In this document: positions 46,341 to 63,666 of the stretch, piece after piece
Layout: each line of letters opens with the position of its first letter
Position numbering within the stretch: the stretch's first letter is position 1
Assembly: GCA_963977445.1 (NCBI GenBank)
Contig: CAXBPH010000001.1
Location: 16,709 to 80,708 of the forward strand
From: an uncultured bacterium
GTDB taxonomy: Bacteria > Hydrogenedentota > Hydrogenedentia > Hydrogenedentales > JAEUWI01
Reading direction: 5' to 3'
Length of the DNA stretch: 64,000 nucleotides
Made by a program: the position numbers and the translations under genes
The notes under the pieces: generated by a model
The model's input: the letters and a program-made list of their open reading frames with translations, nothing else
What the model was told of the DNA's origin: nothing
The model's database searches: none

Positions 46341-48032
46341 TTGAATATTCTGGGCATTGGTGGCTATTCGCACGATTCCGCAGCGGCACTGGTATGTGAC
46401 GGAAGAGTCGTTGCCGCCGTAGCCGAAGAACGTCTCTCCCGGGTGAAACATCAGGGCGGCATCCCCCACCGCGCCATCGCCTGGTGCCTGGAAGCGGGTG
46501 GAATAACGGCGGAAGAGGTGGACCATGTGGGCTGCTACATGCGCCCGGGCCTTCGCCTCGGAAAGCGCCTTCCCTACCGTGCATCGACCTTCTTCAAGCA
46601 TCCATTTTACGCTACAGCCTTTGCCGGGTATGAAATAATTCACAACGCCCAATACATCCAAGGTATGCGGAAGCTGACACCGCCCCATGGGAAGCTCCAC
46701 TATATGGAACACCATCCGGCCCACGCAGCCAGCGCTTTCTTATGCAGCCCCTTTGAGGAAGCCGCCCTCCTCTCCATCGATTATGTGGGCGAATGGGCCG
46801 TAACCTGGACCGGAGTGGGCCGTGGCGGCGCCATCACCCGCCTTCGCCAGACCAACTACCCCAACTCCCTCGGCGTCTTTTATTCCGCCCTCACCGACTA
46901 CCTCGGCTTTCTCCGTGCGTCGGATGAATACAAGGTGATGGGCCTGGCGTCCTACGGGGAACCGACCTACTATGACGATCTGAAAGAGGTCATTCGTCCC
47001 CAGGAGGACGGCTGGTATGCCATCGATCACCGATACACGGCGTGGCACTATCTTCCCGGTTCCCGTTGTGGTTATTTCAGCCAACGGTTTATTGACCGCT
47101 TCGGGCCGCCCCGAAAAAAAGACGAGCCCATCACCGAGCATCACCGCAATCTGGCGGCCTCGGCCCAGCGCCTTCTCGAAGACATCGTATTGAATCTGTG
47201 CCGCAGCCTTCACAAGGAAACCGGCCTGAAAAAGCTCTGTCTTGCTGGAGGCGTTGCCTTGAATTGCTCCATGAATGGGCGACTCAAACGGGAAGGCCCC
47301 TTTGAAGACATCTGGGTGCAACCCGCTTCGGGCGATGATGGCATCGCTATTGGAGCGGCACTCCAGCTCCACCACCAGTTCGGTGGTTCCCCCCGGAACT
47401 TTGTGATGGATCACGCTTTTCTGGGCCCCGAAGTTTCCAATGAAGAAATCGGCGATTTTCTGGACCTGACCAAGACCCCCTATCACCGCTCAGAAAACAT
47501 CGCCGAAGATACGGCGAAGTTACTGGCTGAGGGGAAAATTGTGGGTTGGTTTCAGGGCCCGATGGAGTTTGGCCCCCGTGCCTTGGGAAGTCGCAGTATT
47601 CTGGCCGACCCGACCCGACCCGACATGAAAGACCTCCTGAACAAACACGTCAAATTTCGGGAAGAATTTCGACCCTTTGCCCCGAGCGTCCTGGCGGAAC
47701 ACGCGAGCACCTATTTTGAAGGCTGTACCGATTCGCCCTTCATGCTCTTTGTCTATCCCGTGCGCGCCGAGAAACAGGCGGAAGTCCCGGCGGTCACCCA
47801 TATCGACGGCACCGCCCGGGTGCAGACGGTCACGGAAGCGGCCAATCCCCGTTACTATCAACTTATCAAGGCCTTTGCCGACCTCCGCGGAACGCCCATG
47901 CTGCTCAACACCAGTTTTAACGTGATGGGTGAGCCTATCGTGCACAGCCCGTCTGACGCGATCCGATGTTTTTATAGCACGGGCATGGATGCCCTGGCTA
48001 TTGGCGACTATCTCATTGTAAAGAATCCCTGA
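46341..48032 (+). CDS. carbamoyltransferase, NodU/CmcH/TobZ family
   Basis: N-terminal MNILGIGGYSHDSAAALVCDGRVVAAVAEERLSRVKH (ASKHA-like domain) and C-terminal YrdC-like domain. 563 aa, matching O-carbamoyltransferases. TTG start preceded by gggagag. Confidence 0.85.
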   Translation: MNILGIGGYSHDSAAALVCDGRVVAAVAEERLSRVKHQGGIPHRAIAWCLEAGGITAEEVDHVGCYMRPGLRLGKRLPYRASTFFKHPFYATAFAGYEIIHNAQYIQGMRKLTPPHGKLHYMEHHPAHAASAFLCSPFEEAALLSIDYVGEWAVTWTGVGRGGAITRLRQTNYPNSLGVFYSALTDYLGFLRASDEYKVMGLASYGEPTYYDDLKEVIRPQEDGWYAIDHRYTAWHYLPGSRCGYFSQRFIDRFGPPRKKDEPITEHHRNLAASAQRLLEDIVLNLCRSLHKETGLKKLCLAGGVALNCSMNGRLKREGPFEDIWVQPASGDDGIAIGAALQLHHQFGGSPRNFVMDHAFLGPEVSNEEIGDFLDLTKTPYHRSENIAEDTAKLLAEGKIVGWFQGPMEFGPRALGSRSILADPTRPDMKDLLNKHVKFREEFRPFAPSVLAEHASTYFEGCTDSPFMLFVYPVRAEKQAEVPAVTHIDGTARVQTVTEAANPRYYQLIKAFADLRGTPMLLNTSFNVMGEPIVHSPSDAIRCFYSTGMDALAIGDYLIVKNP

Positions 48033-48063: not shown

Positions 48064-49182
48064 ATGCGCATCCTCATTCCCACCGTGGACTACCCCCCCA
48101 TTGAAGGGGGCATCAGTACGGTTGCCCTGCAGGTGTCGCGCGTGCTGGCACGCCAGGGGCACGACGTCACGGTGGTCGCCCCTGCGTTTCCGGGTATGGA
48201 GGCCTTTGATGCGGCCGAGCCCGTCACCGTCGTGCGATTCCCCGGTTACGATCTGGGCTGGTTTCGCCTCCTCCCCCTCCTCAGGACGAGCTGGCCCCTT
48301 GTGGCAGATACAGACCTTATTCTGGCCATCAACGTGGCCTACGGGGGCATCCTGGGCCGTCTGGCCTATGCGCGACGGGGCACGCCCTACATCAATTTCG
48401 CCTACGCCTACGAATTCCTGAAGTTCGGAGGCAATCCCGTCGCCACAATGGCCCTGCGCTCGATCTATCGCAACGGCCTGCGCTGCATCGCCATCAGTCG
48501 CTTCACCCAGGAAAACCTGATTAATTTCGGTGTCCATGAATCCCATATTCGGATTGCCCTTCCGGGGGCCTCGCCCGCGACGGCAGTGCCGGAAATTACC
48601 GTAGCCCAAGCCCGTCACGAGCTTGATCTCCATGAGGGGCCCTTTGTCCTTGCCGTGGGACGCTTCATTCCACGAAAAGGGCACATACGCCTCGTGGAAG
48701 CCCTGCCCTATGTTCAGGAACGGGTCGGAGCCGTCCAACTGGTCATGGTGGGACGGGGACCGGAACGAGAACGGTGTGTGGAAAAGGCCCACGCTCTGGG
48801 TATTGAAGGCTCCGTGCGTTGTCCCGGCTACGTCGAGGAAGACATACTGCAAGCCCTCTATCAGGATTGCGCCTGCTTCGCCCTGCCCACCGGACAGGAT
48901 GACGATGGCCAGGTGGAAGGATTCGGCCTGGTTTTTACCGAGGCCCACGCCCATGGCAAGGCCGTCGTCGCCGGGCGTTCCGGGGGCGTCACCGATGCGG
49001 TGCTTCATGACCGAACGGGAATCGTCGTACCCTCGAAAGACGCCGACCGCCTCGTGGAAGCCTTGGCCGCTCTGCTCCAGGACCCCGACCACGCTGCTAC
49101 CCTCGGGAAGGCCGGATTGGATCGCGTGCGGGACACGTTGAACTGGGACCGATTTACGGAACAGGTTCTGGCCGATGACTGA
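48064..49182 (+). CDS. glycosyltransferase family 4
   Basis: EGFGLVFTEAHAHGKAVVAGRSGGVTDAV motif. GT-B fold. Confidence 0.8.
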   Translation: MRILIPTVDYPPIEGGISTVALQVSRVLARQGHDVTVVAPAFPGMEAFDAAEPVTVVRFPGYDLGWFRLLPLLRTSWPLVADTDLILAINVAYGGILGRLAYARRGTPYINFAYAYEFLKFGGNPVATMALRSIYRNGLRCIAISRFTQENLINFGVHESHIRIALPGASPATAVPEITVAQARHELDLHEGPFVLAVGRFIPRKGHIRLVEALPYVQERVGAVQLVMVGRGPERERCVEKAHALGIEGSVRCPGYVEEDILQALYQDCACFALPTGQDDDGQVEGFGLVFTEAHAHGKAVVAGRSGGVTDAVLHDRTGIVVPSKDADRLVEALAALLQDPDHAATLGKAGLDRVRDTLNWDRFTEQVLADD

Positions 49183-50350
49183 CCCGGAAAACCCCAGGCG
49201 AATCCGCGTCGCCCATATCATCACCCGCCTCTGTAAGGGTGGGGCCCAGGAGAACACCTTTCACACCGTACGTCTCGCCAATCGCGACCGCTTTGACGTG
49301 GATCTTATCAGCGGGCCCACCCGGGGTCGTGAAGGAAGTATCGAAGCCGCCATCGAGGCCGCCGGGATTCCTATACATCGCGAACCTGCTCTGGTGCGCG
49401 CACCCTTACCACCGTTGGACGTGCTGGCATTGCGTGGCCTTACCCGAAAGCTCAAGGCCGGCGACTACGATATTGTCCACACCCACACCTCCAAGGCCGG
49501 AATCCTCGGAAGGCTGGCCGCCGAGCGGGCGGGCATCCCGCACGTGGTCCACACGCCCCATGGCAATGTATTCCACGGCTACTTTAATGGCCCCCTTACC
49601 CGCCTTTTCGTCTGGATGGAACGCCATGCCGCACGGCGAACGGACCGCATCATCGAATTGACGGCCGGCGGTATTGAGGAGCATCTGGCCGAGGGCATCG
49701 GACAGCGTGACCAATACTGCGTCATCTTCAGTGGGATAGATACGACCCCCTATGCCGAAGCCCGTGCACTGCGGGAGCAGACCCGTGCCCAACTCGGTGC
49801 GGGCCCCGATGAAATATTGATTGGTGCCGTTGGGCGCCTTGAACCCGTCAAGGGTTTCACGTATTTTGTAGCCATGGCCCAACTACTCAAAGCGACGAAG
49901 AGCCCGTTGCGATTCTTCCTAGTCGGCGAAGGTGCACTCCGCCCCGCCCTCGAAGCCCAAGCGGCGGAGGCTGGTGTTACCATCGACTTTCTGGGGCTCC
50001 GCGACGACATCCCCAATCTCATGGCCGCCTTCGACATGCTGGTCGTTCCTTCCATCAATGAGGGCATGGGCCGGGTCATTCTTGAAGCGGGTGCCGCAGA
50101 AACGCCCGTCGTCGCGTCCCGGGTCGGTGGTATTCCTGATGTCGTCGATGAGGACGAAACGGGGATGCTCGTACCACCGCGCTCCCCGGAGGCGCTGGCC
50201 GAAGCCGTCACGTCACTCGTCGCCTCTCCCGAACGCCGCAAACTCATGGGTGCCACGGCCCACGCCAAGGTGGTCCCCCACTACAGTCTTACCCGAATGG
50301 TTCAACGGATTGAAACCGTCTATGAGGAATTATTAAATGCGAACACCTGA
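49175..50350 (+). CDS. glycosyltransferase family 4
   Basis: EGMGRVILEAGAAETPVVASRVGGIPDVV motif. 8-nt overlap with the upstream GT4 (ATGACTGA). Confidence 0.8.
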   Translation: MTDPENPRRIRVAHIITRLCKGGAQENTFHTVRLANRDRFDVDLISGPTRGREGSIEAAIEAAGIPIHREPALVRAPLPPLDVLALRGLTRKLKAGDYDIVHTHTSKAGILGRLAAERAGIPHVVHTPHGNVFHGYFNGPLTRLFVWMERHAARRTDRIIELTAGGIEEHLAEGIGQRDQYCVIFSGIDTTPYAEARALREQTRAQLGAGPDEILIGAVGRLEPVKGFTYFVAMAQLLKATKSPLRFFLVGEGALRPALEAQAAEAGVTIDFLGLRDDIPNLMAAFDMLVVPSINEGMGRVILEAGAAETPVVASRVGGIPDVVDEDETGMLVPPRSPEALAEAVTSLVASPERRKLMGATAHAKVVPHYSLTRMVQRIETVYEELLNANT

Positions 50351-51071
50351 GACCCCTGCCGATGAATTTCTGTCCAAACAGCGACTGCTGGTCATCTCCC
50401 CCCACGCGGACGACGAAAGCTTTGGCTGCGCAGGCACCATGGCCCGCATCAAGGATTTGGGCGGCGAAGTCTATGTCATCTGCTGCTCCGTGGGCACCTT
50501 GAAACACTATGACGGCAAAGAAGAGCTCGTCGACGGGAGTACCCGGGAAAAAGAATTTGAGTCGGTCATGGATTACCTCAAGGTGGACGACTATGAATAC
50601 CTCTATCGGGATGCGGAATCACACCTGCGACTGGACATGATTCCCCGTCGCGATCTCATCTCCAAGTTTGAGCGGGAGTCCCGCCTTTCCCTCGACAAAC
50701 TCCAGCCCACCATGCTGGCCATCCCCGTATCCTCGTACAACCAGGATCACGAGGCCGTATTCCGGGCGGCCTTCACTGCGGCACGGCCCGGTGTCCCCAA
50801 GGACAAACCGGTGCAGCCACTGGTGCTGGGATACAACAACACGTCCCTTTTCTGGAGCCTGGAGCATGAAAAAATTCACATGAACTTCTATGTCGACATA
50901 TCCGACTATCTCGAGAACAAATTACATGCCCTTAGTCTGCACAAGTCCCAGATGCGCGACCCCATTCACCATTCCAGCGTGCAGAATGTGGAGTATGCCG
51001 CCCGTCTCCGCGGCAGCGAGATTTCCGTTGCTGCCGCCGAAGGATTCATGCTCTTTCGACAGATACTGTAG
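50337..51071 (+). CDS. PIG-L / LmbE-family N-acetylglucosaminyl deacetylase
   Basis: LLVISPHADDESFGCAGT zinc-binding signature of the LmbE/PIG-L family. 14-nt overlap with the upstream GT4. Confidence 0.8.
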   Translation: MRTPETPADEFLSKQRLLVISPHADDESFGCAGTMARIKDLGGEVYVICCSVGTLKHYDGKEELVDGSTREKEFESVMDYLKVDDYEYLYRDAESHLRLDMIPRRDLISKFERESRLSLDKLQPTMLAIPVSSYNQDHEAVFRAAFTAARPGVPKDKPVQPLVLGYNNTSLFWSLEHEKIHMNFYVDISDYLENKLHALSLHKSQMRDPIHHSSVQNVEYAARLRGSEISVAAAEGFMLFRQIL

Positions 51072-51244: not shown

Positions 51245-52294
51245 ATGAGCGACCAGAAACTCGTAATCGGCATGCCAGCAGGCTCGCTGGCCGATCCCAA
51301 CCGCGGCGGCAACCTTATCGATCTGCTGAAGCACGCGGGTTTCCCCACCAGTGGCTACGAAAAAGGCGGCCCCACCACCTTCCCCATGAACAGCGTCCTC
51401 ATGGGATGGGATGGACGGCCCCAGGAATTCGGTGCCCAGTTGGCTATCGGTGAAATTGACGTCGCAATCGCGGGCGATGACTGGATCAAAGAGCGGGTCC
51501 TCGAATACAAGTATGAATACAACCAGGAAATCGAGCTGGAAAAAGTGCTCTCCCTGAACCGTGGCGGTGTCCGGTTGGTGATTATCAACAATCCGCTGGG
51601 CGACGACACGAGTTTCGACGAATGGCTGCGTCACATGCTGGTCGAAAAGCCGCTCATTACCATGGTTTCAGAGATGCCTTATCTGGCCCTTGACTGGTTC
51701 CACCGCAAGATCGCCGATTTGGGCTTCCAGGATTCCCACGGCGAATTCTCCGTGCAGAAGTTCAAGACCCCCCCAAAGATAAAGTCGGGCTTGGTTATTT
51801 ATGAAACCTGGGGCAAGACCGAAGCCAAGGTTCTGAAGGGCTCCGTAGATTTCGGCCTGGAAATCACCCAGACGGGCAGCGCCATCCGAAACTATGGTTT
51901 GGAGATGAGCGAAGAAGTCTTCACCTCCGAAACCGGCATCTGGGCGAATCCGAAGATCAAGGAAAACCCCGAGAAACTGGAATTGGCGCGCATGTTCCTG
52001 CTGAACCTGCAGGGCTCCATTTTTGCGGAAGACAAACTCCTCCTCTCTTTCAATGCCCGCAACAAGGATGTGGAAGAGGTCATTGCCTATCTCAGTGAGA
52101 ACGCCCTATTCGGCGATGAGCCCACCATGAGTCAGGGCACGAGCTTTACGCAGTTCACGGTACAGGTGGCTATCAAGAATAAGCGGATGGGCCTGGCACA
52201 CGTACGTTATGAACTCGCCAAGATGGGGGCCACCCACATCGAGACCATCCCCCTGGACTCGTGCATTACGGGCCTGGACGCCATCGACTTCTGA
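51245..52294 (+). CDS. hisG: ATP phosphoribosyltransferase (HisG)-like protein, long form with insertions
   Basis: Block-wise similarity to HisG: LVIGMPAGSLAD (cf. RIAMQKSGRLSD), EIDVAIAGDDWIKE (cf. VDLGIIGENVLEE), LVIYETWG...GSVDFGLEITQTGSAIRNYGL (cf. [30 protein letters not shown]). 349 aa versus about 300 typical. Confidence 0.5.
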   Translation: MSDQKLVIGMPAGSLADPNRGGNLIDLLKHAGFPTSGYEKGGPTTFPMNSVLMGWDGRPQEFGAQLAIGEIDVAIAGDDWIKERVLEYKYEYNQEIELEKVLSLNRGGVRLVIINNPLGDDTSFDEWLRHMLVEKPLITMVSEMPYLALDWFHRKIADLGFQDSHGEFSVQKFKTPPKIKSGLVIYETWGKTEAKVLKGSVDFGLEITQTGSAIRNYGLEMSEEVFTSETGIWANPKIKENPEKLELARMFLLNLQGSIFAEDKLLLSFNARNKDVEEVIAYLSENALFGDEPTMSQGTSFTQFTVQVAIKNKRMGLAHVRYELAKMGATHIETIPLDSCITGLDAIDF

Positions 52295-53017: not shown

Positions 53018-54262
53018 TTATCCGGTGGCGAGACAGAGTCCGTCGTCACCGGGCGTTTCGTCGGGATCACAGAGGCGGTAGCCACCTTTGTTGTAAATCT
53101 GAATGGCCCGAAGCATTTCGGACAGGTCAAAGTGCCAGTCCTCGTTATAGTCGGCATTGTGGGGGGTGCAGGTTTCGGTGCCTTCGGCACTGGGAATGAA
53201 ACCATCTTCACCGGAGGGGTCGCAGCTGAATTCGCCCAGATTGTACAGCTGAATCATGCGCAAGAGTTCGCTGGAGCTAATCTTCATATCATCGTCATTG
53301 TCCCCCGCATGGCCCACGCGGTCACCGGTGCTGCCCGCGAGCTCGGAGCCCACCACATACTTTACGATGGGATCGGCCGTATCGGAACCCCAGTCGGTAC
53401 TGGGCACCAATTCCGGACTCGCTTCCAGGGAGAAGGAGACATCCAACTTTTTGCCGAGTGCCACGATAGCTTCGCCCGTGGCGGCATTTTTCATGAATCC
53501 CCGAAAGGGGGCCTTCATCTCTGCTTCGTGTCCATCTGCAGAAATTGCGATGGTCACGATGGAGTCGGGATAAACCGGACCCTTGTCCACCACCCAATAG
53601 ATGGCCTCTCCTGTAGGAATGATGATTTCCTGACCGAAGGTCGCCGGATCAAAACCGGGAGGGGTATCGTAGTAAACCCATTGGGTATAGCAATCGTAGT
53701 TACCGGGAACCAGGTTCACCACGCCCATGGACTGTTCCACCTGGGATTGGAGGAAGGCGGGGTCGCCAGAATTTTCAAGACAACCGTGGAGCAGGAAGTG
53801 GCCCGTATTGAATTCGCCGTCGTAAAACTCCACCTCCATATTCATATCATAGCCCGGCGTCGTGGGATAGTAGCCCCCCTCGTGAAGGGGATAGCCGGTT
53901 TCATCATCTTCATCCATATCAATGGTGATAATGATGTAGAAGCGACCGGCTTTGCCATCGACACCTAAATTGGAAGTACGACCAATCTGACCCCGGGAGC
54001 GGAAGTACCCGTAGAGGTTATCTTCATCGTGACTGAATTTATATTCGATCAAGTCCACATCGGGATGGTCGACATAGGCGGGCACATCGGTGGCACCCTT
54101 GTGATCCGTGTCATGCTGATCATCCGCCGGATCCGTATAAGAGGGAATGCCCGCCCAGTCACCAAAATTGCCGTCGATTACAATCGGACGTATTGGTGCT
54201 GCGTTTACGGTTGACACCATCAGGACAACACAACCCACATAAATCAATACTTTGTATTTCAC
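53018..54262 (-). CDS. secreted protein with N-terminal conserved domain (shared with the next gene) and two C-terminal dockerin/EF-hand-like repeats
   Basis: Signal peptide MKYKVLIYVGCVVLMVSTVNAA (GTG at 54262; the ORF extends to 54307). Conserved IDGNFGDWAGIPSYTDPADDQHDTD...YVDHPDVDL block. C-terminal repeats GDNDDDMKISSSELLRMIQLYNLG and DYNEDWHFDLSEMLRAIQIYNKG. Confidence 0.5.
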   Translation of the reverse strand: MKYKVLIYVGCVVLMVSTVNAAPIRPIVIDGNFGDWAGIPSYTDPADDQHDTDHKGATDVPAYVDHPDVDLIEYKFSHDEDNLYGYFRSRGQIGRTSNLGVDGKAGRFYIIITIDMDEDDETGYPLHEGGYYPTTPGYDMNMEVEFYDGEFNTGHFLLHGCLENSGDPAFLQSQVEQSMGVVNLVPGNYDCYTQWVYYDTPPGFDPATFGQEIIIPTGEAIYWVVDKGPVYPDSIVTIAISADGHEAEMKAPFRGFMKNAATGEAIVALGKKLDVSFSLEASPELVPSTDWGSDTADPIVKYVVGSELAGSTGDRVGHAGDNDDDMKISSSELLRMIQLYNLGEFSCDPSGEDGFIPSAEGTETCTPHNADYNEDWHFDLSEMLRAIQIYNKGGYRLCDPDETPGDDGLCLATG

Positions 54263-54369
54263 AATAGCACTCCAAAAACTTCGGCAAAGATTGCCGATTT
54301 TTATCAACTACACTTTTACGTACATCCGCCCCACATTGCTATGATACCTGCTATGGACGGAAAAGAAAA

Positions 54370-55383
54370 CTATTTTATGGACTGGCGCCGAGCAAAAGCG
54401 AGAGAACTCAGAATACCACCAATTATTAGAAAAACGCCCGCAAACCCAATCGCGTAGGGACCGAGGGGCAACGGTGTCGTGGCATCTTTGTTGCCAAGGA
54501 CATACCCGTTAATCGGGTCGGCCGTGTCAGACGCCCATTGGGCACCCACCGCCAACTCACCACTCGCTTCAAGGGAAAAAGAAACATCTATCGTATCGCC
54601 CAGCTCAATGATGGGGCGGCCGCCTGGGCCATCTTTCATAAATCCCCGAAAGGGCGCTTTCATTTCCGCTTCGTGACCGTCGGCGGAAAGAAATATTTCT
54701 ACGATCGAGTCGGGGTATACCGGACCTTTATCCACCACCCAGTAAATCGCTTCTCCCGTGGGAATTATGATTTCGTTGGCATAACCTGGCGGGGTGTCAT
54801 ACCACACCCACTGGGTATAGCAATCATAGTTGCCCGGAACCAGCGTCACATAACCCTGCGACTGCTCGGCTTCCGAAGCCATAAAGGTGGTCGCATCGAG
54901 GCAGCCATGGAGCAGATAGTGCCCTGTGTTAAAGGTACCATCGAAATATTCCACTTCCATGTTCAAGTCATAGCCGGTCGTGGTGGGGAAATAGCCCCCC
55001 TCGTGTAGCGGATAGCCCGTGCTATCGTCATTGTCCATATCAATCGTAATGATGACGTAGTACCGGCCCCCCGTACCTGCACCGGAATTTAACGTACGTC
55101 CGATTACGCCCCGTGATTTGAAATAACCGTAAAAATTGTCTTCGTCATGGGTAAACTTAAATTCAACCAGATCAACATCCTCGTGGTCCACATAGGCGGG
55201 CACGTCGGTTGCCATGGTCTGATCCGTATCATGCTGGTCGTCCACCGGATCCGTGTAGGACGGCACTTCCGCCCAGTCATCGAAATTCCCATCCATGGAA
55301 ATGCGATAAATGGGTTCGGCATGGCCCGCGAAGGATAGGGTGAACAAAACCATCCCAACAAGTCCACGGCGTAGTGTCGACAT
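54370..55383 (-). CDS. secreted paralog of the preceding gene with C-terminal TM/Arg-rich (PEP-CTERM-like) anchor
   Basis: Signal peptide. MDGNFDDWAEVPSYTDPVDDQHDTD...YVDHEDVDL block, estimated >50% identical to the 53018 gene over ~280 aa. C-terminus PLPLGPYAIGFAGVFLIIGGILSSLAFARRQSIK. Confidence 0.5.
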   Translation of the reverse strand: MSTLRRGLVGMVLFTLSFAGHAEPIYRISMDGNFDDWAEVPSYTDPVDDQHDTDQTMATDVPAYVDHEDVDLVEFKFTHDEDNFYGYFKSRGVIGRTLNSGAGTGGRYYVIITIDMDNDDSTGYPLHEGGYFPTTTGYDLNMEVEYFDGTFNTGHYLLHGCLDATTFMASEAEQSQGYVTLVPGNYDCYTQWVWYDTPPGYANEIIIPTGEAIYWVVDKGPVYPDSIVEIFLSADGHEAEMKAPFRGFMKDGPGGRPIIELGDTIDVSFSLEASGELAVGAQWASDTADPINGYVLGNKDATTPLPLGPYAIGFAGVFLIIGGILSSLAFARRQSIK

Positions 55384-55550: not shown

Positions 55551-57422
55551 CTATTCCAAGGCAAATATCCCCGAGGCAGGGAAGTGGGCTCCCGTCGCCC
55601 AACCGGGGCGCCAGGTAATCAAAGATACACCAAGGCGGGCATCGGAAGGGTCGTAGTCGTTGATACCGATATTAAATTGGATATGGTCCGTTTCTGCTCC
55701 GGAAATACGTTTCAACGCCGCCAGCGGTATGGAAAACTCGTAGGTAATTCGTTCCGCTGACGCATCGAATGCGGATATACAGTCTAACTCGGCAGAAAGG
55801 TGCTTGGAGCCATTCCGCTCATAGCCCGCCCGTTCCTCGGGGCTGAGGTCGGGACCTTCAACGATAGCCACAACGGATTCCTCGGTCATCGGTGTCTTTT
55901 CGGGATCCTCCCCCGCTGCGCGTGCGTAAACCACGGCGAAGTCCTGCCACAATTTCACCCCACCCCCGTCGACCACGTCATCGTCGACTTCCATGGCCAC
56001 AAAGAGGGTTGTGTCGTCATGGGCGAGGCCAAAGCGGAATGTGGCATCCTCCATGCCCTTCCAAGCAAGTTCGTTGGTATAAATCTGGCCCGGCTGCTTC
56101 ATTTCGAAAGGCAGCACGCCCCAATCGTCCAATTTCCCATCGACGGCAATACCTTCTATCCTGGGTACGTGGTGAAGTCCGTCGGCAAAAAGTCGGTGGA
56201 CATCGTTGAACTGGATGGGCTCGGCATTAAAGGTGTCGTAGATACCGGTCCAATGGAGGGCGATGGGCTGGATCTGGTCCACGAAAAGCGCCGGCTCAGC
56301 GGCCACGGATATACGCTTGGTCACGGCGCTGTCTGGCGGCACAATAAAACTAATACTACTGGGCGATACACGAAGTGATGCATCGGCCTCTACGAAGCCC
56401 TTGAATCGGAGGGGCTTGTCCCAGGGATTGGTCACAGAAATGTCCCAGGAGGCCGTGGCAAAGGTATCGCCTTCGATAACGACGGGGGACGACTGGACCA
56501 CACGACCACTGCGAAAGGCGCTCAATTCTTCCATCAGCGCCGTGGTTCGAAAATCGACGGGCTGAATGCCGTCCAGCGCGAGGGAAGCCATCTTGGGGCC
56601 CTCGTCTCGGGCGGTAACCCACATCACATGGTCGAACTCGCCGTAGGCCTCACCCCGAAGCCGGGAGCCGCCCCCGCTCGTTCCCAACGTGACATACTGG
56701 ATGTTGCCGCGCTCCTCGAAGGAGTAATTGTGGACATGGCCAGCAAAGAAGGTGTGCTGGCGCCCGGCGAAGAGGGGCTCGGCCCGCTTCCATTCGTCTT
56801 CGTGGGATAGCCAGAAGGGCTTATGCTGAATAACGTACGTCCAGCGCACATCGGTGTGGGCGTCCAGCACGCCCTTGGCCCACTGGAGCTGTTCCTCGCT
56901 GTAACCCGTGCCCCTATTCTCTCCGTCGTTCGTATCAAGAATGAGAAAGAGAACATCCTGATAAAGAAAATAGTAATAGGAAGGCCCCACCCGTTCCAGG
57001 TAGACATCGTGCCAAAGCTGCCGTCCCACATCGTGGTTACCGGGTGCAAAGAAGAAGGGCACCGTGAGGGGTTCCAGGTAGGTCATGAACTCGTCCCACT
57101 GGACGTTTAATTCCTCTTTGGTATCTACATAGCCTTCTATCAGGTCGCCCACGCTGATGATAAAGGCGGGCTGGAGCAGATCGGCTTTTTCCATGGCCTC
57201 GCGGAAGATGCCGGGACGGGGCGTACCCGTGTTGTCGGACACCACCACGAATTGGAAGTCCTTGGGAGCAAATCGGGGTTTGTCGCTGGTCCAGGGCTTC
57301 TTATCACCGACGATAGTGTGCTCGATAAGCGGGGCATGGTCGTCGTCATGATCCCCACCGGGGTGGGCGACGGCCAATCGGGCAAGTGAGGAAATGAGCA
57401 AGAGTATCGTTAACGAGCGCAT
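55551..57422 (-). CDS. secreted calcineurin-like metallophosphoesterase (purple-acid-phosphatase-like) with C-terminal extension
   Basis: Signal peptide. Metallophosphoesterase motifs FVVVSDNTG (GD), GNHD (FAPGNHDVG), GHVHNY. ~300-aa C-terminal beta-rich region. Confidence 0.7.
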   Translation of the reverse strand: MRSLTILLLISSLARLAVAHPGGDHDDDHAPLIEHTIVGDKKPWTSDKPRFAPKDFQFVVVSDNTGTPRPGIFREAMEKADLLQPAFIISVGDLIEGYVDTKEELNVQWDEFMTYLEPLTVPFFFAPGNHDVGRQLWHDVYLERVGPSYYYFLYQDVLFLILDTNDGENRGTGYSEEQLQWAKGVLDAHTDVRWTYVIQHKPFWLSHEDEWKRAEPLFAGRQHTFFAGHVHNYSFEERGNIQYVTLGTSGGGSRLRGEAYGEFDHVMWVTARDEGPKMASLALDGIQPVDFRTTALMEELSAFRSGRVVQSSPVVIEGDTFATASWDISVTNPWDKPLRFKGFVEADASLRVSPSSISFIVPPDSAVTKRISVAAEPALFVDQIQPIALHWTGIYDTFNAEPIQFNDVHRLFADGLHHVPRIEGIAVDGKLDDWGVLPFEMKQPGQIYTNELAWKGMEDATFRFGLAHDDTTLFVAMEVDDDVVDGGGVKLWQDFAVVYARAAGEDPEKTPMTEESVVAIVEGPDLSPEERAGYERNGSKHLSAELDCISAFDASAERITYEFSIPLAALKRISGAETDHIQFNIGINDYDPSDARLGVSLITWRPGWATGAHFPASGIFALE

Positions 57423-57522: not shown

Positions 57523-58484
57523 TCAGACACCTGCGCCGTAGACAGCGTTCAACTTCGGCACCGGAAATTCGTCCGACGGAAATTTTACAAACTTCACATG
57601 ACCGTCCAGATAGAGCACATTGGAACCACCGGGGATGTGGTTGAAACGCTGGGTCCCGGAGGGGGCACTCGGCTGGGCCGCTTCGATGTGGTCCCACATG
57701 AGCGCAATCAAGCTCTGTGCTTTCGCCGATCCAGCCGCATTGTTTACCGTGATGAGAAAACGCTCGGTGCCCTCGCGAAGACGGGAAATCTTGTCGCCGC
57801 CATTGTTGCCCTGGGCCACATAGGTCCCGGCAGCTTCGCCCAGTTCCGCCGCAGACGCGTCGATATAGGGCTGAATCATTCCCCGCGCTGCCGCAGCATT
57901 TACGCCAGGGATCAATCCACCCAGATCGATATACCCGTCGAGAAGGGCCTGCTGCTCTGCAGGTCCACCACCAATGGCACCGGGGACCTGTACCGCAATG
58001 ACCATCGTGCCAAAGACATCAACTATCTCCACCAGGTAACCATAGTAGAGGTAACTGCGCTTGTCACCAAACTCCTCGGGATCAAGCTTTCCGAAATTCG
58101 GACTGATTATATCCTGGGTTCACCATTGGCCATCGGGCAGTCACTAAAAAGCTCTGCGGCACCACGGGCCGTGGATGGGCAAAAGTACAGATTCAGGTCG
58201 GTGAGGTATTCGGGATAGACGGCGCTACCGTCCACCATGGCGACCGGTCCGACTTTCGTGAGATCGTCCAGCTTCGACTCATCGCCCATGGGGGGATAGT
58301 TTTCGCCCGCCGATTCATTGGCATACATTTTGTAGACCAAGGCCCATTGCTTGAGATTGTTCTGGCAACTCGCGCGGCGCGCCGCTTCCCGGGCACGGGC
58401 CAAGGCAGGCAGGAGTATGGCCGCCAGTAGGCTAATGATAGCAATAACAACGAGAAGTTCGATGAGAGTGAAGCCTTTGTTCAT
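57523..58484 (-). pseudogene. DUF1559 / prepilin-signal protein gene interrupted by a frameshift (two ORF pieces)
   Basis: ORF 58107..58484 encodes [46 protein letters not shown] (aaggag RBS). ORF 57523..58032 encodes the family C-terminus ...FNHIPGGSNVLYLDGHVKFVKF. The pieces are in different frames with a ~75-nt gap. Paralog of 15677..16642. Confidence 0.55.
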
Positions 58485-58820: not shown

Positions 58821-61800
58821 GTGAGAGAGACTGTTATGCATCCCATCCCATACATTTCCCTGCTGATCGGGGTCGTTTCCCTAGTTCAGGCGCCCGCCGT
58901 GTCCGCCACCGAGGTTGATTTCCAGCAGGACATTCTCCCCCTGATGGCAGACCGGTGCTTTGCCTGCCATGGTCCCGATGGCAATCAACGCAAGGGCGAC
59001 CTGCGGCTTGATGTGGAATCCGCTGCAAAAAAGGAAGTCATCGTATCGGGAGAACCCGAAAACAGCGAGCTCATTCGGCGCATTCTCACCACGGATCCCG
59101 ACGACCATATGCCCCCACCGGAATCGGAGAAGGAAAGTCTCACCCCGGAACAAATCGAGTTGTTTCGCGCATGGATACAACAAGGCGCGACCTGGGAAGG
59201 TCACTGGGCCTATACGACGCCCTCCCTCCCCGATACGCCCGCCGTCGTAACCCAACAGTGGGCTCGGACCCTTGTCGACCCCTTTATCCTGGCGCGTCTG
59301 GAGGAGAAGGGCCTGTCTCCTTCGCCCGAGGCGGACCGGGAAACCCTCATCCGACGTCTCACCCTGGATCTAACGGGGCTGCCACCCACCCTGGACGCCA
59401 TCGACCGCTTTGTCTTGGACAACAGCGACGATGCCTATGAGAACCTCGTTGACGGCCTGCTGAATACCCCTGCCTATGGGGAGCACATGGCCCGGATGTG
59501 GCTCGATGTGGCCCGCTATGCCGACACCAATGGCTACCAGAATGATTTCCACCGGGTCATGTGGCCCTGGCGCGACTGGGTCGTTGGTGCCTTCAACGAC
59601 AATATGCCCTATGACCAGTTCGTCGTTGAACAGCTTGCCGGTGACCTCCTCCCCAACGCAACAGAATCCCAGCGCATCGCCACGGGGTTCAACCGCAATA
59701 ACAAGAGCGTCACCGAGGGCGGCTCCATTGAAGAAGAATGGCTCGTGGAAAACCTCGTGGACCGGGTGGAGACCACGTCGCTGGCCTTTCTCGGTCTGAC
59801 CATGGGGTGTGCGCGCTGTCACGATCACAAGTATGACCCCATCACCCAGAAAGATTTCTATCAATTCTACGCGTTCTTCAATAGCACCGAGGACAATGGC
59901 TTTTATCAGGAAACCCGGGGCAATACGGGGCCACAGGTCTTCGTGCCCGATTTTAAACAGCAGCAGGAACTGACCCGGCTGGACCAGGCCATTAATCGGG
60001 CCCAGGCCGAATACAACGAGGCCCGCGCGGCCCAGGGTGGTGAGTTTGACGGCTGGCTGAACGCGCTCCGAGAGGTCAAACCCGCGGAGAACGCACCCCA
60101 TCCCGTCTACGAGGCGGCCCTGGCGGGAACGCTGCCCACCCAGGAAGCACCACCGGCCAACACGCCGGTCTGGAAAGCGGGCCTCCTCGGGCAAGCCCTC
60201 GCGCTGGACGGTACGGCAACCTCGACCATCGATTTGGGTCAGGGCGTCACCTTTGATCGGGAAAAGCCCTTTACCGCACTCCTGTGGGTCCGGCCCACGT
60301 CAGCGGGTGCCCTCTACAGCAAGATGGATGAAGCGCAGGACTTCCGTGGCGTGGATCTGCTCCTTTCCGGCAACGGCGCAATCGAGGCTCATGTCGTCAG
60401 CGCATGGGATTCGGATGCCTTCAAGATTCAGGCAGAGAACGCCGTCACCATGGGCGTATGGAATTTTGTAGGCCTCACCTATGACGGCTCCAGTAAAGCG
60501 TCCGGCATGAAAGTCTATGTCAATGGCATGGAAGTCCCCGTGAAGGTCTTGAACGACGCCCTGAGCGGCCCCATCGACACGGCCCAACCCCTCCGCGTGG
60601 GCCAACGCACGTCTAGCACCTATCTCAACGGGGAAGTCGCTGGCCTTCAGTTTTTTGACCAGGCCCTGCCGCTGGACGTGGTGACCCAATTCCAGGACGT
60701 CTCCCTGGCATCCGCCTTGACGACGGATATTGGCGAGGATCAGATGAAGGCCCTTCAGGGGTTTCATAATCTCCAAATCACCAAGCTCCTTCGTCCCCAG
60801 CAGGAAGCCCTCGACGCGACAAACAAGGCCCGCAATGAGTATGCGAAAAACATCCCCAGTGTCATGGTGATGGAAGAGCGGGAAACGCCCCGGCCGACTT
60901 ATCTCCTCAAGCGGGGTGCCTATGACGCGCCCGACACCAGTGAAGAACTCCATCCGAACACACCCGGCTTCCTGCCTGCCCTGGCCGACGGCGTCCCCCA
61001 CAATCGTCTGGGCCTGGCCCAATGGCTCATTTCACCGGAAAATCCACTCACAGCACGGGTCGCGATAAACCGATTCTGGCAAATGCTCTTTGGCCGTGGT
61101 CTCGTGAAGACTTCCGAAGATTTTGGCGTTCAGGGAAGCCCCCCGACCCACCCCAAGTTGCTCGATGCCCTGTCCCTTCACTTTGAGGAAACCGGTTGGG
61201 ACGTGAAAGGACTGTTGAAGGATCTGGTCATGAGCGCCACCTACCGTCAATCGAGTGCCCTGAATCAGACCTTGCTGGCCCAGGACCCGGACAACCAGTT
61301 TTATGCCCGGGCACCCCGTTATCGCCTCTCTGCAGAGATGATTCGGGACAACGCTCTGGCCGTCAGTGGCTTACTGGCGAAGGAACTCGGCGGACCACCG
61401 GCCATGCCCTATCAACCGGGGGGACTGTGGGAAGAACTCGCGGGCGGTGCCAGCCAAGGCCCCTATGTGCAGGGAACGGGTGATGATCTCTATCGCAGAA
61501 GCCTCTATACCCATCGCAAGCGAACCGTGCCCCACCCCACGTTGACGACCTTTGACGCCCCGAGCTTTGAGTATTGCCTCGCACGCCGGGGACGCACCAA
61601 CACCCCCTTGCAGGCGCTGGCGCTCTTGAATGACACCACCTATGTGGAAGCAGCCCGCCATCTGGCCCAGCGGATGGTGACCGAAGTAGACGGCGACGCC
61701 CGTGCCCGTCTGGCCTATGGCTTTCGCCTGGCAACGGGACGTAACCCCACGGAATCGGAATTGAATTCCCTGCAACTCGGCTATGACCGCTATGAAGAGA

Positions 61801-61949
61801 AATATGCCAGCGACCCAGAGGCCAGCCAGGCCTTGGTGAGCAATGGCGAATCTCCCGTTCCCGGGGACATCCCCGCAGCGACCCTGGCGGCCTATACACC
61901 CGTCGCAGGCGTTCTGCTCAACCTCGACGAAACCTTGACGCGGGAATAG
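58821..61949 (+). CDS. Planctomycete cytochrome-c domain protein (PSCyt1 + PSCyt2/DUF1549 + PSD1/DUF1553)
   Basis: Signal peptide. CFACHG heme-binding motif near the N-terminus. 1042 aa with the DUF1549...DUF1553 layout, followed by a DUF1501 gene as is typical. Confidence 0.8.
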   Translation: MRETVMHPIPYISLLIGVVSLVQAPAVSATEVDFQQDILPLMADRCFACHGPDGNQRKGDLRLDVESAAKKEVIVSGEPENSELIRRILTTDPDDHMPPPESEKESLTPEQIELFRAWIQQGATWEGHWAYTTPSLPDTPAVVTQQWARTLVDPFILARLEEKGLSPSPEADRETLIRRLTLDLTGLPPTLDAIDRFVLDNSDDAYENLVDGLLNTPAYGEHMARMWLDVARYADTNGYQNDFHRVMWPWRDWVVGAFNDNMPYDQFVVEQLAGDLLPNATESQRIATGFNRNNKSVTEGGSIEEEWLVENLVDRVETTSLAFLGLTMGCARCHDHKYDPITQKDFYQFYAFFNSTEDNGFYQETRGNTGPQVFVPDFKQQQELTRLDQAINRAQAEYNEARAAQGGEFDGWLNALREVKPAENAPHPVYEAALAGTLPTQEAPPANTPVWKAGLLGQALALDGTATSTIDLGQGVTFDREKPFTALLWVRPTSAGALYSKMDEAQDFRGVDLLLSGNGAIEAHVVSAWDSDAFKIQAENAVTMGVWNFVGLTYDGSSKASGMKVYVNGMEVPVKVLNDALSGPIDTAQPLRVGQRTSSTYLNGEVAGLQFFDQALPLDVVTQFQDVSLASALTTDIGEDQMKALQGFHNLQITKLLRPQQEALDATNKARNEYAKNIPSVMVMEERETPRPTYLLKRGAYDAPDTSEELHPNTPGFLPALADGVPHNRLGLAQWLISPENPLTARVAINRFWQMLFGRGLVKTSEDFGVQGSPPTHPKLLDALSLHFEETGWDVKGLLKDLVMSATYRQSSALNQTLLAQDPDNQFYARAPRYRLSAEMIRDNALAVSGLLAKELGGPPAMPYQPGGLWEELAGGASQGPYVQGTGDDLYRRSLYTHRKRTVPHPTLTTFDAPSFEYCLARRGRTNTPLQALALLNDTTYVEAARHLAQRMVTEVDGDARARLAYGFRLATGRNPTESELNSLQLGYDRYEEKYASDPEASQALVSNGESPVPGDIPAATLAAYTPVAGVLLNLDETLTRE

Positions 61950-62016
61950 AAAACGGTGACGTATGAATTACAGAATCCTTTCACGGAAATTCGAAGCCGG
62001 TACAACGGGATTAAAC

Positions 62017-62121
62017 GGGTGCCACCCTTACAGACACGAGGTACGAGTGGCTTTAAGGGTGTATCCCAACCCAACACCCTTAAACTCCCCCGCTGCGCTC
62101 CTCCGTGTAAGGGTGGCACCC
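62017..62121. repeat. nested perfect inverted repeat (16-bp outer stem, 11-bp inner stem) in PSCyt-DUF1501 intergenic region
   Basis: Outer arms GGGTGCCACCCTTACA (62017-62032) and TGTAAGGGTGGCACCC (62106-62121). Inner hairpin TTTAAGGGTGT (62052-62062) / ACACCCTTAAA (62074-62084) with an 11-nt loop. No U-tract. Confidence 0.6.
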
Positions 62122-62217
62122 ACAATACTTCGTGCTATGTATCGCCGTAACGTTGCTATTGACCCGACAACTCCGTTTGAGACGAAACCTCAATAAAATA
62201 ACTACCGGAACTACACT

Positions 62218-63666
62218 ATGGACGCGCTAAAATTTGCCCAACATATTAACCGCCGCGACTTCCTCCAACGTGCCGGATGCAGCCTCGGTGCCGCCGCGCT
62301 CGGCCTCCTCGGCGCCGGCACCGCAACAGCATCGACGGAAGAAGATATTCGTAAAGTAGCCAACCACTTCGCTCCCCGGGCCAAGCGGGTTATTTACCTC
62401 TTTCAGTCCGGCGCACCCACCCAACTCGAAACCTTCGACTATAAGCCGGGACTGAAAGACCTTGATACCACCGAGCTGCCCGACAGCATCCGCATGGGAC
62501 AACGGCTAACCGGCATGACCTCGGGCCAGGCGAATTTTCCCGTGACGGCGTCCCGTTTCGGCTTTTCGCAATATGGCCAAAGCGGCATGTGGCTCAGCGA
62601 ATTACTTCCCCATACCGCGGGCATCGCCGACGACATCTGCGTCATCCGCTCCATGCACACCGAAGCCATTAACCATGACCCGGCCATCACCTTCTGCCAG
62701 ACGGGCTCCCAACTTGCGGGCAAACCCAGCATGGGCGCCTGGGTGGCCTATGGCCTCGGCAGCAGCAACGAAAACCTACCTACCTTCACCGTGCTGATAT
62801 CCCGGGGCACGGGACGCCTCGCCACCCAGCCCCTTTATGACCGTCTCTGGGGCAGCGGTGCCCTCCCCGGACGTTACCAGGGCATAAAACTTCGTGCCGG
62901 TGAAGAACCCGTGCTCTACCTGGCCAACCCGGCAGGATGCGACACCAACATTCGCCGCCAGATGCTTGACCAGCTCAACGACCTCAACGAACAGAAGTAC
63001 AACGCGGTGCAGGACCCCGAAATTCGCACCCGTATCGAACAATACGAGTTGGCCTTCCGCATGCAGTCCGCCGTGCCCGATCTCACCGACATCAGCGACG
63101 AACCGGAACACATCCTGGAAATGTATGGCCCCGACGTGCGCAAACCGGGCACCTACGCCCGCAACTGCCTCCTCGCCCGCCGCATGGCCGAGCGGGACGT
63201 CCGCTTCGTACAGCTTTATCACATGGGCTGGGATCACCACGACAACCTGCCCGACCACCTCACCAAGCAATGCCGCGACACGGATCAACCTTCGGCGGCG
63301 CTGGTGGCCGACTTGAAACAACGCGGCATGCTCGACGACACCCTCGTCATCTGGGGCGGCGAATTTGGCCGCACCGTCTACAGCCAGGGAAAAGTCACCG
63401 ACACCACCTATGGCCGGGATCACCACCCCCGCTGCTTCTCCCTCTGGATGGCCGGCGGCGGCATCAAGCCCGGCATCGTCCACGGCGAGACCGACGATTT
63501 CAGCTACAACATCGTGAAGGACCCGGTCCACGTAAATGACTTGCACGCCACCATCCTCGATTGCCTCGGCCTCGACCACGAACGCCTCTCCGTCCCCTTC
63601 CAGGGTCTGGACGTCCGCCTCTCCGGCGTGGAGGAACACCACCCGGTGAAAGCCATATTGGCGTAG
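62218..63666 (+). CDS. DUF1501 (sulfatase-like) protein with twin-arginine signal
   Basis: Tat motif [23 protein letters not shown]. 482 aa. The DUF1501 family is canonically paired with DUF1549/DUF1553 proteins. Confidence 0.8.

Follow-up and report, generated by a model that had tools for sequence, protein, structure and literature searches.

Two adjacent minus-strand genes, here termed A and B, occupy positions 53018 to 55383 of the 64-kb window (the whole stretch of DNA that was analysed). Each encodes a protein with a predicted signal peptide, a common core of ~280 amino acids (aa) and a C-terminal tail, and, judged by sequence, A and B differ only in these tails. On balance, and with moderate confidence, we read the two genes as a tandem duplication of some age that encodes exported DOMON/CBM9-type ligand-binding heads whose location is set by the tails. 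The pair comprises the following features:

53018..54262, minus: gene A, 414 aa, predicted secreted (signal peptide, DOMON/CBM9-like core, dockerin-like double EF-loop module)
54262 (GTG start) and 53018-53020 (stop), minus: ends of gene A, from open reading frame (ORF) listing, database protein and gene call
54200..54262, minus: predicted signal peptide of A, (V/M)KYKVLIYVGCVVLMVSTVNA, predicted cleavage before APIRP (basic n-region, hydrophobic h-region and VNA-A site, read from the sequence)
53348..54199, minus: core of A, 284 aa (APIRPIVIDGNF...PIVKYVVG), beta-sandwich of predicted DOMON/CBM9 type, family without a name
53027..53323, minus: C-terminal module of A, 99 aa, two ~50-residue repeats with four Cys
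53267..53302, minus: EF-hand-type loop 1, DNDDDMKISSSE (alignment of 56 module instances)
53117..53152, minus: EF-hand-type loop 2, DYNEDWHFDLSE (same alignment)
54281..54297, minus: putative hairpin (7-bp stem) followed by a T-run, candidate terminator or attenuator between the B stop and the A GTG (consensus scan)
54370..55383, minus: gene B, 337 aa (signal peptide, same core as A, C-terminal membrane helix)
55318..55383, minus: predicted signal peptide of B, MSTLRRGLVGMVLFTLSFAGHA (read from the sequence)
54487..55317, minus: core of B, 277 aa (alignment with A; included in the family alignment)
54457..54474, minus: Pro motif PLPLGP directly before the helix, with counterparts in B-type orthologs and VPEP in planctomycete-type members
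54373..54456, minus: hydrophobic helix YAIGFAGVFLIIGGILSSLAF (54394-54456) and basic end ARRQSIK (54373-54393)

Pairwise comparison of A and B by BLASTP gave 207 identical residues out of 302 (69%, E 1e-149). The alignment begins at the signal-peptide cleavage region and stops exactly at '...SDTADPI.GYV.G'. The original prediction of adjacent minus-strand paralogs with a shared N-terminal domain, which had called for such an alignment, was borne out by the ORFs and by this level of identity, and every identical block that it had quoted was found in both proteins.

The longest ORF of A (53018..54307, 429 aa) opens with a TTG. Most likely, however, translation begins at the GTG at 54262 rather than at the TTG at 54307, because a GGAG sits 7 nt 5' of the GTG, because the hairpin and T-run fall within the alternative 5' extension, and because 414 aa is also the length of P0001, a database protein of 100% identity, and of the gene called on the Tara Oceans metagenome scaffold that the window comes from. 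Homologs of A show equivalent N-termini. B is matched by an identical Tara protein (P0030) and was likewise called as a gene of 337 aa on that scaffold. The putative hairpin may separate or attenuate transcription of A and B, but it carries little weight, since such sites number 5 in the region compared to 3.9 in shuffles.

Four further loci of Hydrogenedentota (L001, L002, L003 and L006) show the same tandem order of B followed by A, with a gap of ~300 bp between the B-type copy and the A-type copy that follows it. In a neighbour-joining tree of the core domain, A from the window grouped among A-type proteins and B among B-type proteins. Mean core identity was 75% inside each type and 67% across the types, and several database contigs hold one A-type and one B-type protein. 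The recurrence of the tandem in four loci and the separation of the types on the tree argue against a chance or assembly duplicate. Taken together, the conserved tandem, the core tree, the identities and the contigs with both types indicate that the duplication and the difference in tails are older than the divergence of the species. The nearest genomes are metagenome-assembled genomes (MAGs) of Candidatus Hydrogenedentota, at a protein identity of 82%.

The shared core domain

A word-index search returned 654 family proteins at E <= 1e-3. In a scan with one genome per species, 79 family loci were found in Hydrogenedentota, Planctomycetota and Verrucomicrobiota; a few of the MAGs among them are labelled as other taxa. 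One member is encoded by a cultured organism, the planctomycete Lacipirellula limnantheis I41. Neither A nor B matched any Pfam or NCBIfam family. For 91 family members, no Pfam model matched the core even at E <= 1, and CBM9_1, DOMON and EB_dh gave no match in any of them at that threshold. The family profile matched nothing among PDB sequences. Weak hits of Firmicu-CTERM (NCBIfam, E ~0.04) were considered as a clue to sorting and discarded, as the matches cover just the 'VDGxxDDW' motif of the first strand.

The AlphaFold2 (AF2) model of the core, with a predicted local distance difference test score (pLDDT) of 85.9 and a predicted template modelling score (pTM) of 0.81, has the predicted beta-sandwich fold of the CBM9/DOMON superfamily, and every significant structural neighbour is a beta-sandwich without catalytic function. 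Known proteins listed for the core, with their scores, are the ethylbenzene dehydrogenase gamma subunit EbdC (12.2), the putative carbohydrate-binding protein BACUNI_03838 (10.8), NxrC (10.8), Sas6 through its CBM74 (10.7), the CBM9 of T. maritima Xyn10A (10.5) and glucodextranase (8.3). The core is a new family without an existing model, inside a known fold superfamily.

A rival reading takes the core for a DOMON redox domain that binds heme b, as do the gamma subunits of ethylbenzene dehydrogenase and of nitrite oxidoreductase, and that would be exposed in the periplasm or at the surface to transfer electrons. We regard this as unlikely. Identity to the heme-binding DOMON proteins (EbdC 2ivf_C, NxrC 7b04_C and the cytochrome domain of cellobiose dehydrogenase) is 7-8%, and in contrast to these the core lacks an EB_dh or DOMON hidden Markov model (HMM) match and no redox partners lie near the A/B pair. 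The CBM9 of T. maritima Xyn10A (PDB 1i82) and the CBM74 of Ruminococcus bromii Sas6 (PDB 7uwu) have 15% identity to the core. The latter binds starch and is CBM9-like but larger, with Ca sites (bioRxiv 10.1101/2022.11.20.514607). In contrast to these modules, no member examined had the A/B-type core joined to a glycoside hydrolase.

Across the 91 sequences, which span three phyla, 54 alignment columns are invariant, and D, E, H, Y, W and G are abundant. The most conserved stretch of the core, TGYPLHEGGYYPTTPGYD, is at the same time where confidence in the model is lowest (pLDDT 54-64). This combination fits a loop that depends on a ligand or a metal. Active-site lids, too, are often low-pLDDT loops, and with the invariant columns, the frequency of D, E and H and the fact that the core is the sole sizeable domain in nearly all members, a case could be made for catalysis by the core, for instance as a new fold variant of an esterase or a polysaccharide-active enzyme that is placed by its tails. 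The non-catalytic nature of every significant structural neighbour and the lack of a match to any catalytic family speak against this, and we give it a small chance. A binding head, with a glycan as the likeliest ligand, is preferred because a fused catalytic domain was seen in none of the family members examined and gene neighbours are not conserved between phyla. The fusion partners that were found (TSP3, BACON, Flg_new_2, EF-hand, dockerin and PEP-CTERM) are spacer, anchoring or binding modules. By analogy with CBM9 and CBM74, the core most likely binds a glycan, aided by Ca2+ or by acidic loops.

C-terminal tails of A, B and their relatives

The tail of A consists of two repeats, 'DNDDDMKISSSELLRMIQLYN' and 'DYNEDWHFDLSEMLRAIQIYN'. 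Each runs from H-x-A-D through a 12-residue EF-hand loop and a helix ELLRxIQxYN to a short hairpin and a Cys. Among the 56 aligned module instances, loop 1 has D at position 1 (56/56), N or D at position 3 (49/56), D or N at position 5 (55/56), a hydrophobic residue at position 8 and E at position 12 (56/56). In loop 2, positions 1 (D), 6 (W) and 12 (E) are each conserved in all 56 instances and position 5 is D or N in 54. Position 8 of the loops is occupied by I, V, F or L, and position 6 is not Gly. The loops follow the canonical ligand pattern of EF-hands and would be expected to bind Ca2+. Two of the Cys are invariant and the other two occur in 37/56 instances; the four conserved Cys probably form two disulfides.

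In its two tandem units of Ca-type loop and predicted helix, and in its C-terminal placement, the module resembles type I dockerins (PF00404). It differs from them in several respects. Position 12 of the loop is Glu, as in EF-hands, whereas dockerins have Asp; the repeat period is ~50 residues instead of ~35; every repeat further includes a hairpin and a conserved pair of Cys; and the module has the HxAD lead-in and the invariant Trp at position 6 of loop 2. Dockerin_1 (PF00404) did not match the tail of A at E <= 10 or the whole of A at E <= 1, and nothing in NCBIfam matched the tail. EF-hand_6 stayed below threshold (16.1 vs 25 bits, E 0.0094), and in other carriers of the module EF-hand matches were likewise below threshold. 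Compared by hhalign with the genuine dockerins of sister proteins, the tail profile reached a probability of 4%, with a 20-residue loop alone being aligned. Dockerins ranked at the top for the module in two structure searches, with weak scores.

A word-index search with the tail alone had returned 1 match, the query being short. An exhaustive HMMER search with the tail profile over 1.84 billion cluster representatives was used instead and yielded 2,934 matches at E <= 1e-3, 2,317 of them at E <= 1e-10. In the best 149, the module lies at the extreme C-terminus in 118, directly after the signal peptide in 15 and internally in 16, with 1 to 4 copies per protein. The proteins that carry it include bacterial immunoglobulin (Ig)-like and HYR arrays, beta-helix/DUF1565 proteins, leucine-rich repeat (LRR) proteins, Flg_new_2 proteins and EF-hand arrays as well as a PqaA-family protein, an M4 peptidase and a SUMF1-family enzyme. 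All carriers with a source name (8/8) are from Candidatus Hydrogenedentes/-ota; two of them share a locus-tag prefix and thus derive from one genome. Within the window and the 79 loci, the module is confined to A-type genes. The ~95-aa module is autonomous and missing from the domain libraries searched. The tail of A is a new variation on the theme of Ca-loop docking modules that is widespread in one candidate phylum.

Three to four copies of the module were found in P0122/P0277 (2552 aa, HPO16463.1) and in P0123 (356 aa), the latter consisting of little else. In a network of docked proteins, carriers with several copies might serve as adaptors.

A highly diverse cargo, the position at the very C-terminus in most of the top carriers and the single phylum of the named ones would also suit a secretion or sorting tag that, like the C-terminal domain used in type IX secretion (T9SS), is recognised and perhaps removed in export and does not dock. 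Such a tag is improbable, however, as copies directly after the signal peptide or within the chain and up to 4 copies per protein are a misfit for a C-terminal tag, and as the module appears to be a folded Ca-loop domain of dockerin-like topology. The many cargoes and the mostly C-terminal but position-tolerant placement form a pattern like that of dockerins and other anchoring modules, and less like that of an export tag confined to the C-terminus.

The end of B reads PLPLGP, YAIGFAGVFLIIGGILSSLAF and ARRQSIK, in this order. Its helix of ~21 residues has a hydropathy of 2.25 over 17 residues and is followed by 3 R/K, so that a hydrophobic helix and a basic cluster stand at the extreme C-terminus as in PEP-CTERM signals. 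B is certainly built for membrane tethering, via this predicted helix. The tripartite layout of PEP-CTERM signals, with a Pro motif, a helix and a basic cluster, has been described (PMC10957091, Fig. 5 legend). The tail of B shares the position, Pro motif, helix and basic cluster of PEP-CTERM and IPTL-CTERM (PF07589, TIGR02595, PF18203), and sister proteins hold real PEP-CTERM or IPTL-CTERM signals where B has its tail. In contrast to PEP-CTERM, B has PLPLGP instead of VPEP and no PEP motif. No PEP-CTERM, IPTL-CTERM or other sorting-signal model of Pfam or NCBIfam matched the tail at E <= 10. Because its layout and position match those of the true signals of sister proteins, the tail may be a lineage-specific sorting signal, at which B might be processed; it may also simply be a stop-transfer anchor.

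Comparison over the family placed both tails in a wider context. Among 91 members, Pfam matched TSP3 in 11, dockerin in 8, PEP-CTERM in 7, EF-hand in 6, IPTL-CTERM in 2 and Flg_new_2 in 2 as C-terminal modules, and a tail is lacking altogether in many members, which are short. The IPTL-CTERM (2/91) and PEP-CTERM matches indicate that, apart from the unrecognised B-type tail, two or more known signals of exosortase type are in use in the family. As positive controls, a true dockerin was recognised at the position of the module in the sister protein P0089 (29.1 bits vs a threshold of 22.9), and the VPEP tail of the sister protein P0119 passed the Pfam PEP-CTERM model (23.0 vs 20.7 bits). A helix with a basic cluster ends 36/120 family proteins, nearly all with a Pro motif directly before the helix. 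This motif is VPEP in planctomycete-type members, an IPTL-like 'LPxxxxWGL' in some and [LMVFA]-P-[LMVA] in B-type orthologs. Tail types track clades on the core tree. The C-terminus of the family is a swapping site for localisation modules. P0053, P0060, P0081 and P0117 are among the members that end in 'LPxxxxWGL', a helix and a basic cluster.

The His/Asp-rich invariant blocks of the core (DDQHDTD, HDEDN), together with PEP-CTERM on sister proteins and a similar distribution of the type seen in the Planctomycetota-Verrucomicrobiota-Chlamydiota (PVC) group, brought metal-capture exoproteins akin to ZepA into consideration. ZepA is a cyanobacterial PEP-CTERM exoprotein for zinc acquisition that is present in the PVC group too, with a zinc motif H-X2-9-H-[FY]-H and an architecture of Ig-like and novel domains (PMC10957091). 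This motif is missing in A and B, ZepA is set apart by its motif and described architecture from a protein with a 280-aa CBM9-like sandwich, and no Zur-regulated or metal-transport genes lie beside the A/B pair. A ZepA-like role is very unlikely, and the analogy was dropped on motif and architecture.

Several parts of the original prediction can now be separated. It had not recognised the family of the shared domain, and the core is indeed absent from Pfam and NCBIfam. Its two dockerin-like Ca-binding repeats at the end of A hold as a duplicated EF-type loop and helix, while the dockerin HMM fails. For the PEP-CTERM-like end of B, the layout of helix and basic cluster stands, while there is no PEP motif and the PEP-CTERM and IPTL-CTERM models fail. 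An exosortase, which it had proposed to look for, was not found within the 64-kb window, where no ORF has more than ~5 predicted transmembrane segments and the membrane ORFs match no exosortase model. One module deployed in two surface contexts agrees with the alternative C-terminal modules seen family-wide, while the dockerin and PEP-CTERM labels do not pass their membership tests. The prediction was staked against the joint outcome of a well-known glycoside hydrolase or lectin family for the core and failing C-terminal motifs; half of this came about, in that the motifs fail the HMM thresholds, while the core reaches the CBM9/DOMON superfamily by fold alone.

Proposed placement of the binding heads

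In the reading that we prefer, the ~280-aa beta-sandwich, the sole large globular part of A and B, would act as a ligand-binding head. The head of B would stay at the membrane through its C-terminal helix with the basic end. The head of A would be freed from the membrane and would bear the ~95-aa double EF-loop/helix module. By analogy with dockerins, this module might dock diverse secreted proteins of Hydrogenedentota (peptidase, LRR, beta-helix and Ig-like proteins) in a Ca2+-dependent manner onto a common surface partner.

Several observations weigh against this reading. The signal peptides of A and B are predictions by eye. Conservation of the core is very high, which is unusual in a carbohydrate-binding module and could point to catalysis. 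Over the 79 loci nothing functional recurs among the gene neighbours and none is conserved across phyla, so that no pathway is indicated. The tail of B fits no sorting-signal model, and among 302 ORFs of the window and the Hydrogenedentota loci a B-type tail was found in family members alone; there is therefore no sign of a sorting system with many substrates.

A more far-reaching proposal is a display system common to the phylum Hydrogenedentota, in which the module would be a new class of dockerin that tethers a large secretome, with peptidases, LRR proteins, beta-helix proteins and the CBM9-like binders of the A type, Ca2+-dependently to a cohesin-like or glycan receptor. We put this forward tentatively. 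If it is true, A and B would offer one binding head in two forms, docked and membrane-tethered.

As Hydrogenedentota have not been cultured and few studies deal with them, little is established about their cell surface. A literature search on the motif strings, the module, the core family and Hydrogenedentota surface systems returned nothing. The analysis exposes two building blocks without models, namely a conserved CBM9/DOMON-type head that Hydrogenedentota have in common with Planctomycetota and Verrucomicrobiota and a promiscuous Ca-loop module found on a large set of secreted proteins; family models for both would spare their carriers the label "hypothetical". If the module docks, it would help to predict the surface proteome of the phylum and to locate the receptor, and the dockerin principle would reach well beyond the cellulosome of Firmicutes. 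Current concepts are not overturned by these findings, and the promiscuous module is a testable lead on the organisation of surface proteins in an uncultured phylum.

Neighbouring genes

The genes around the A/B pair in the window include:

46341..48032, plus: carbamoyltransferase
49175..50350, plus: GT4 glycosyltransferase
50337..51071, plus: PIG-L family deacetylase, overlapping the glycosyltransferase
51245..52294, plus: HisG-like protein, 349 aa (weak Pfam HisG match, 59 bits)
55551..57422, minus: metallophosphoesterase, 623 aa, predicted secreted, upstream of B, with a CBM9_1-like C-terminal domain below threshold
57523..58478, minus: DUF1559/HX9DG-type pseudopilin gene split over two frames
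58821..63666, plus: PSCyt1/PSCyt2/PSD1 protein with a Laminin_G_3 insert, followed by a DUF1501 protein

The HisG-like gene is the sole conserved neighbour of the A/B pair, which it adjoins in L001, L002, L004, L006 and L008 with an identity of 77-88%, all of these being close relatives. The pairing of GT4 and PIG-L is one that we take to resemble thiol-cofactor (BshA/BshB-like) or glycan-modification cassettes. Nothing was found that ties the HisG-like, PIG-L, GT4 and carbamoyltransferase genes in function to the A/B pair.

The C-terminal domain of the metallophosphoesterase begins with 'IAVDGKLDDW'. With this protein, three adjacent exported proteins, A and B among them, have a domain of DOMON/CBM9 type. 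Homology of this domain to the A/B core was considered and rejected: hhalign gave 4.6%, with just the first-strand 'VDGxxDDW' being aligned. The gene is not conserved beside the A/B pair in other loci.

In the split pseudopilin gene, the N-terminal part runs into a stop and the C-terminal part '...LYLDGHVKFVKF' forms the ORF 57523..58032. The gene is either a frameshifted pseudogene or an assembly error. The pair of PSCyt1/PSCyt2/PSD1 and DUF1501 proteins is typical of Planctomycetota and is found here on a Hydrogenedentota-like scaffold.

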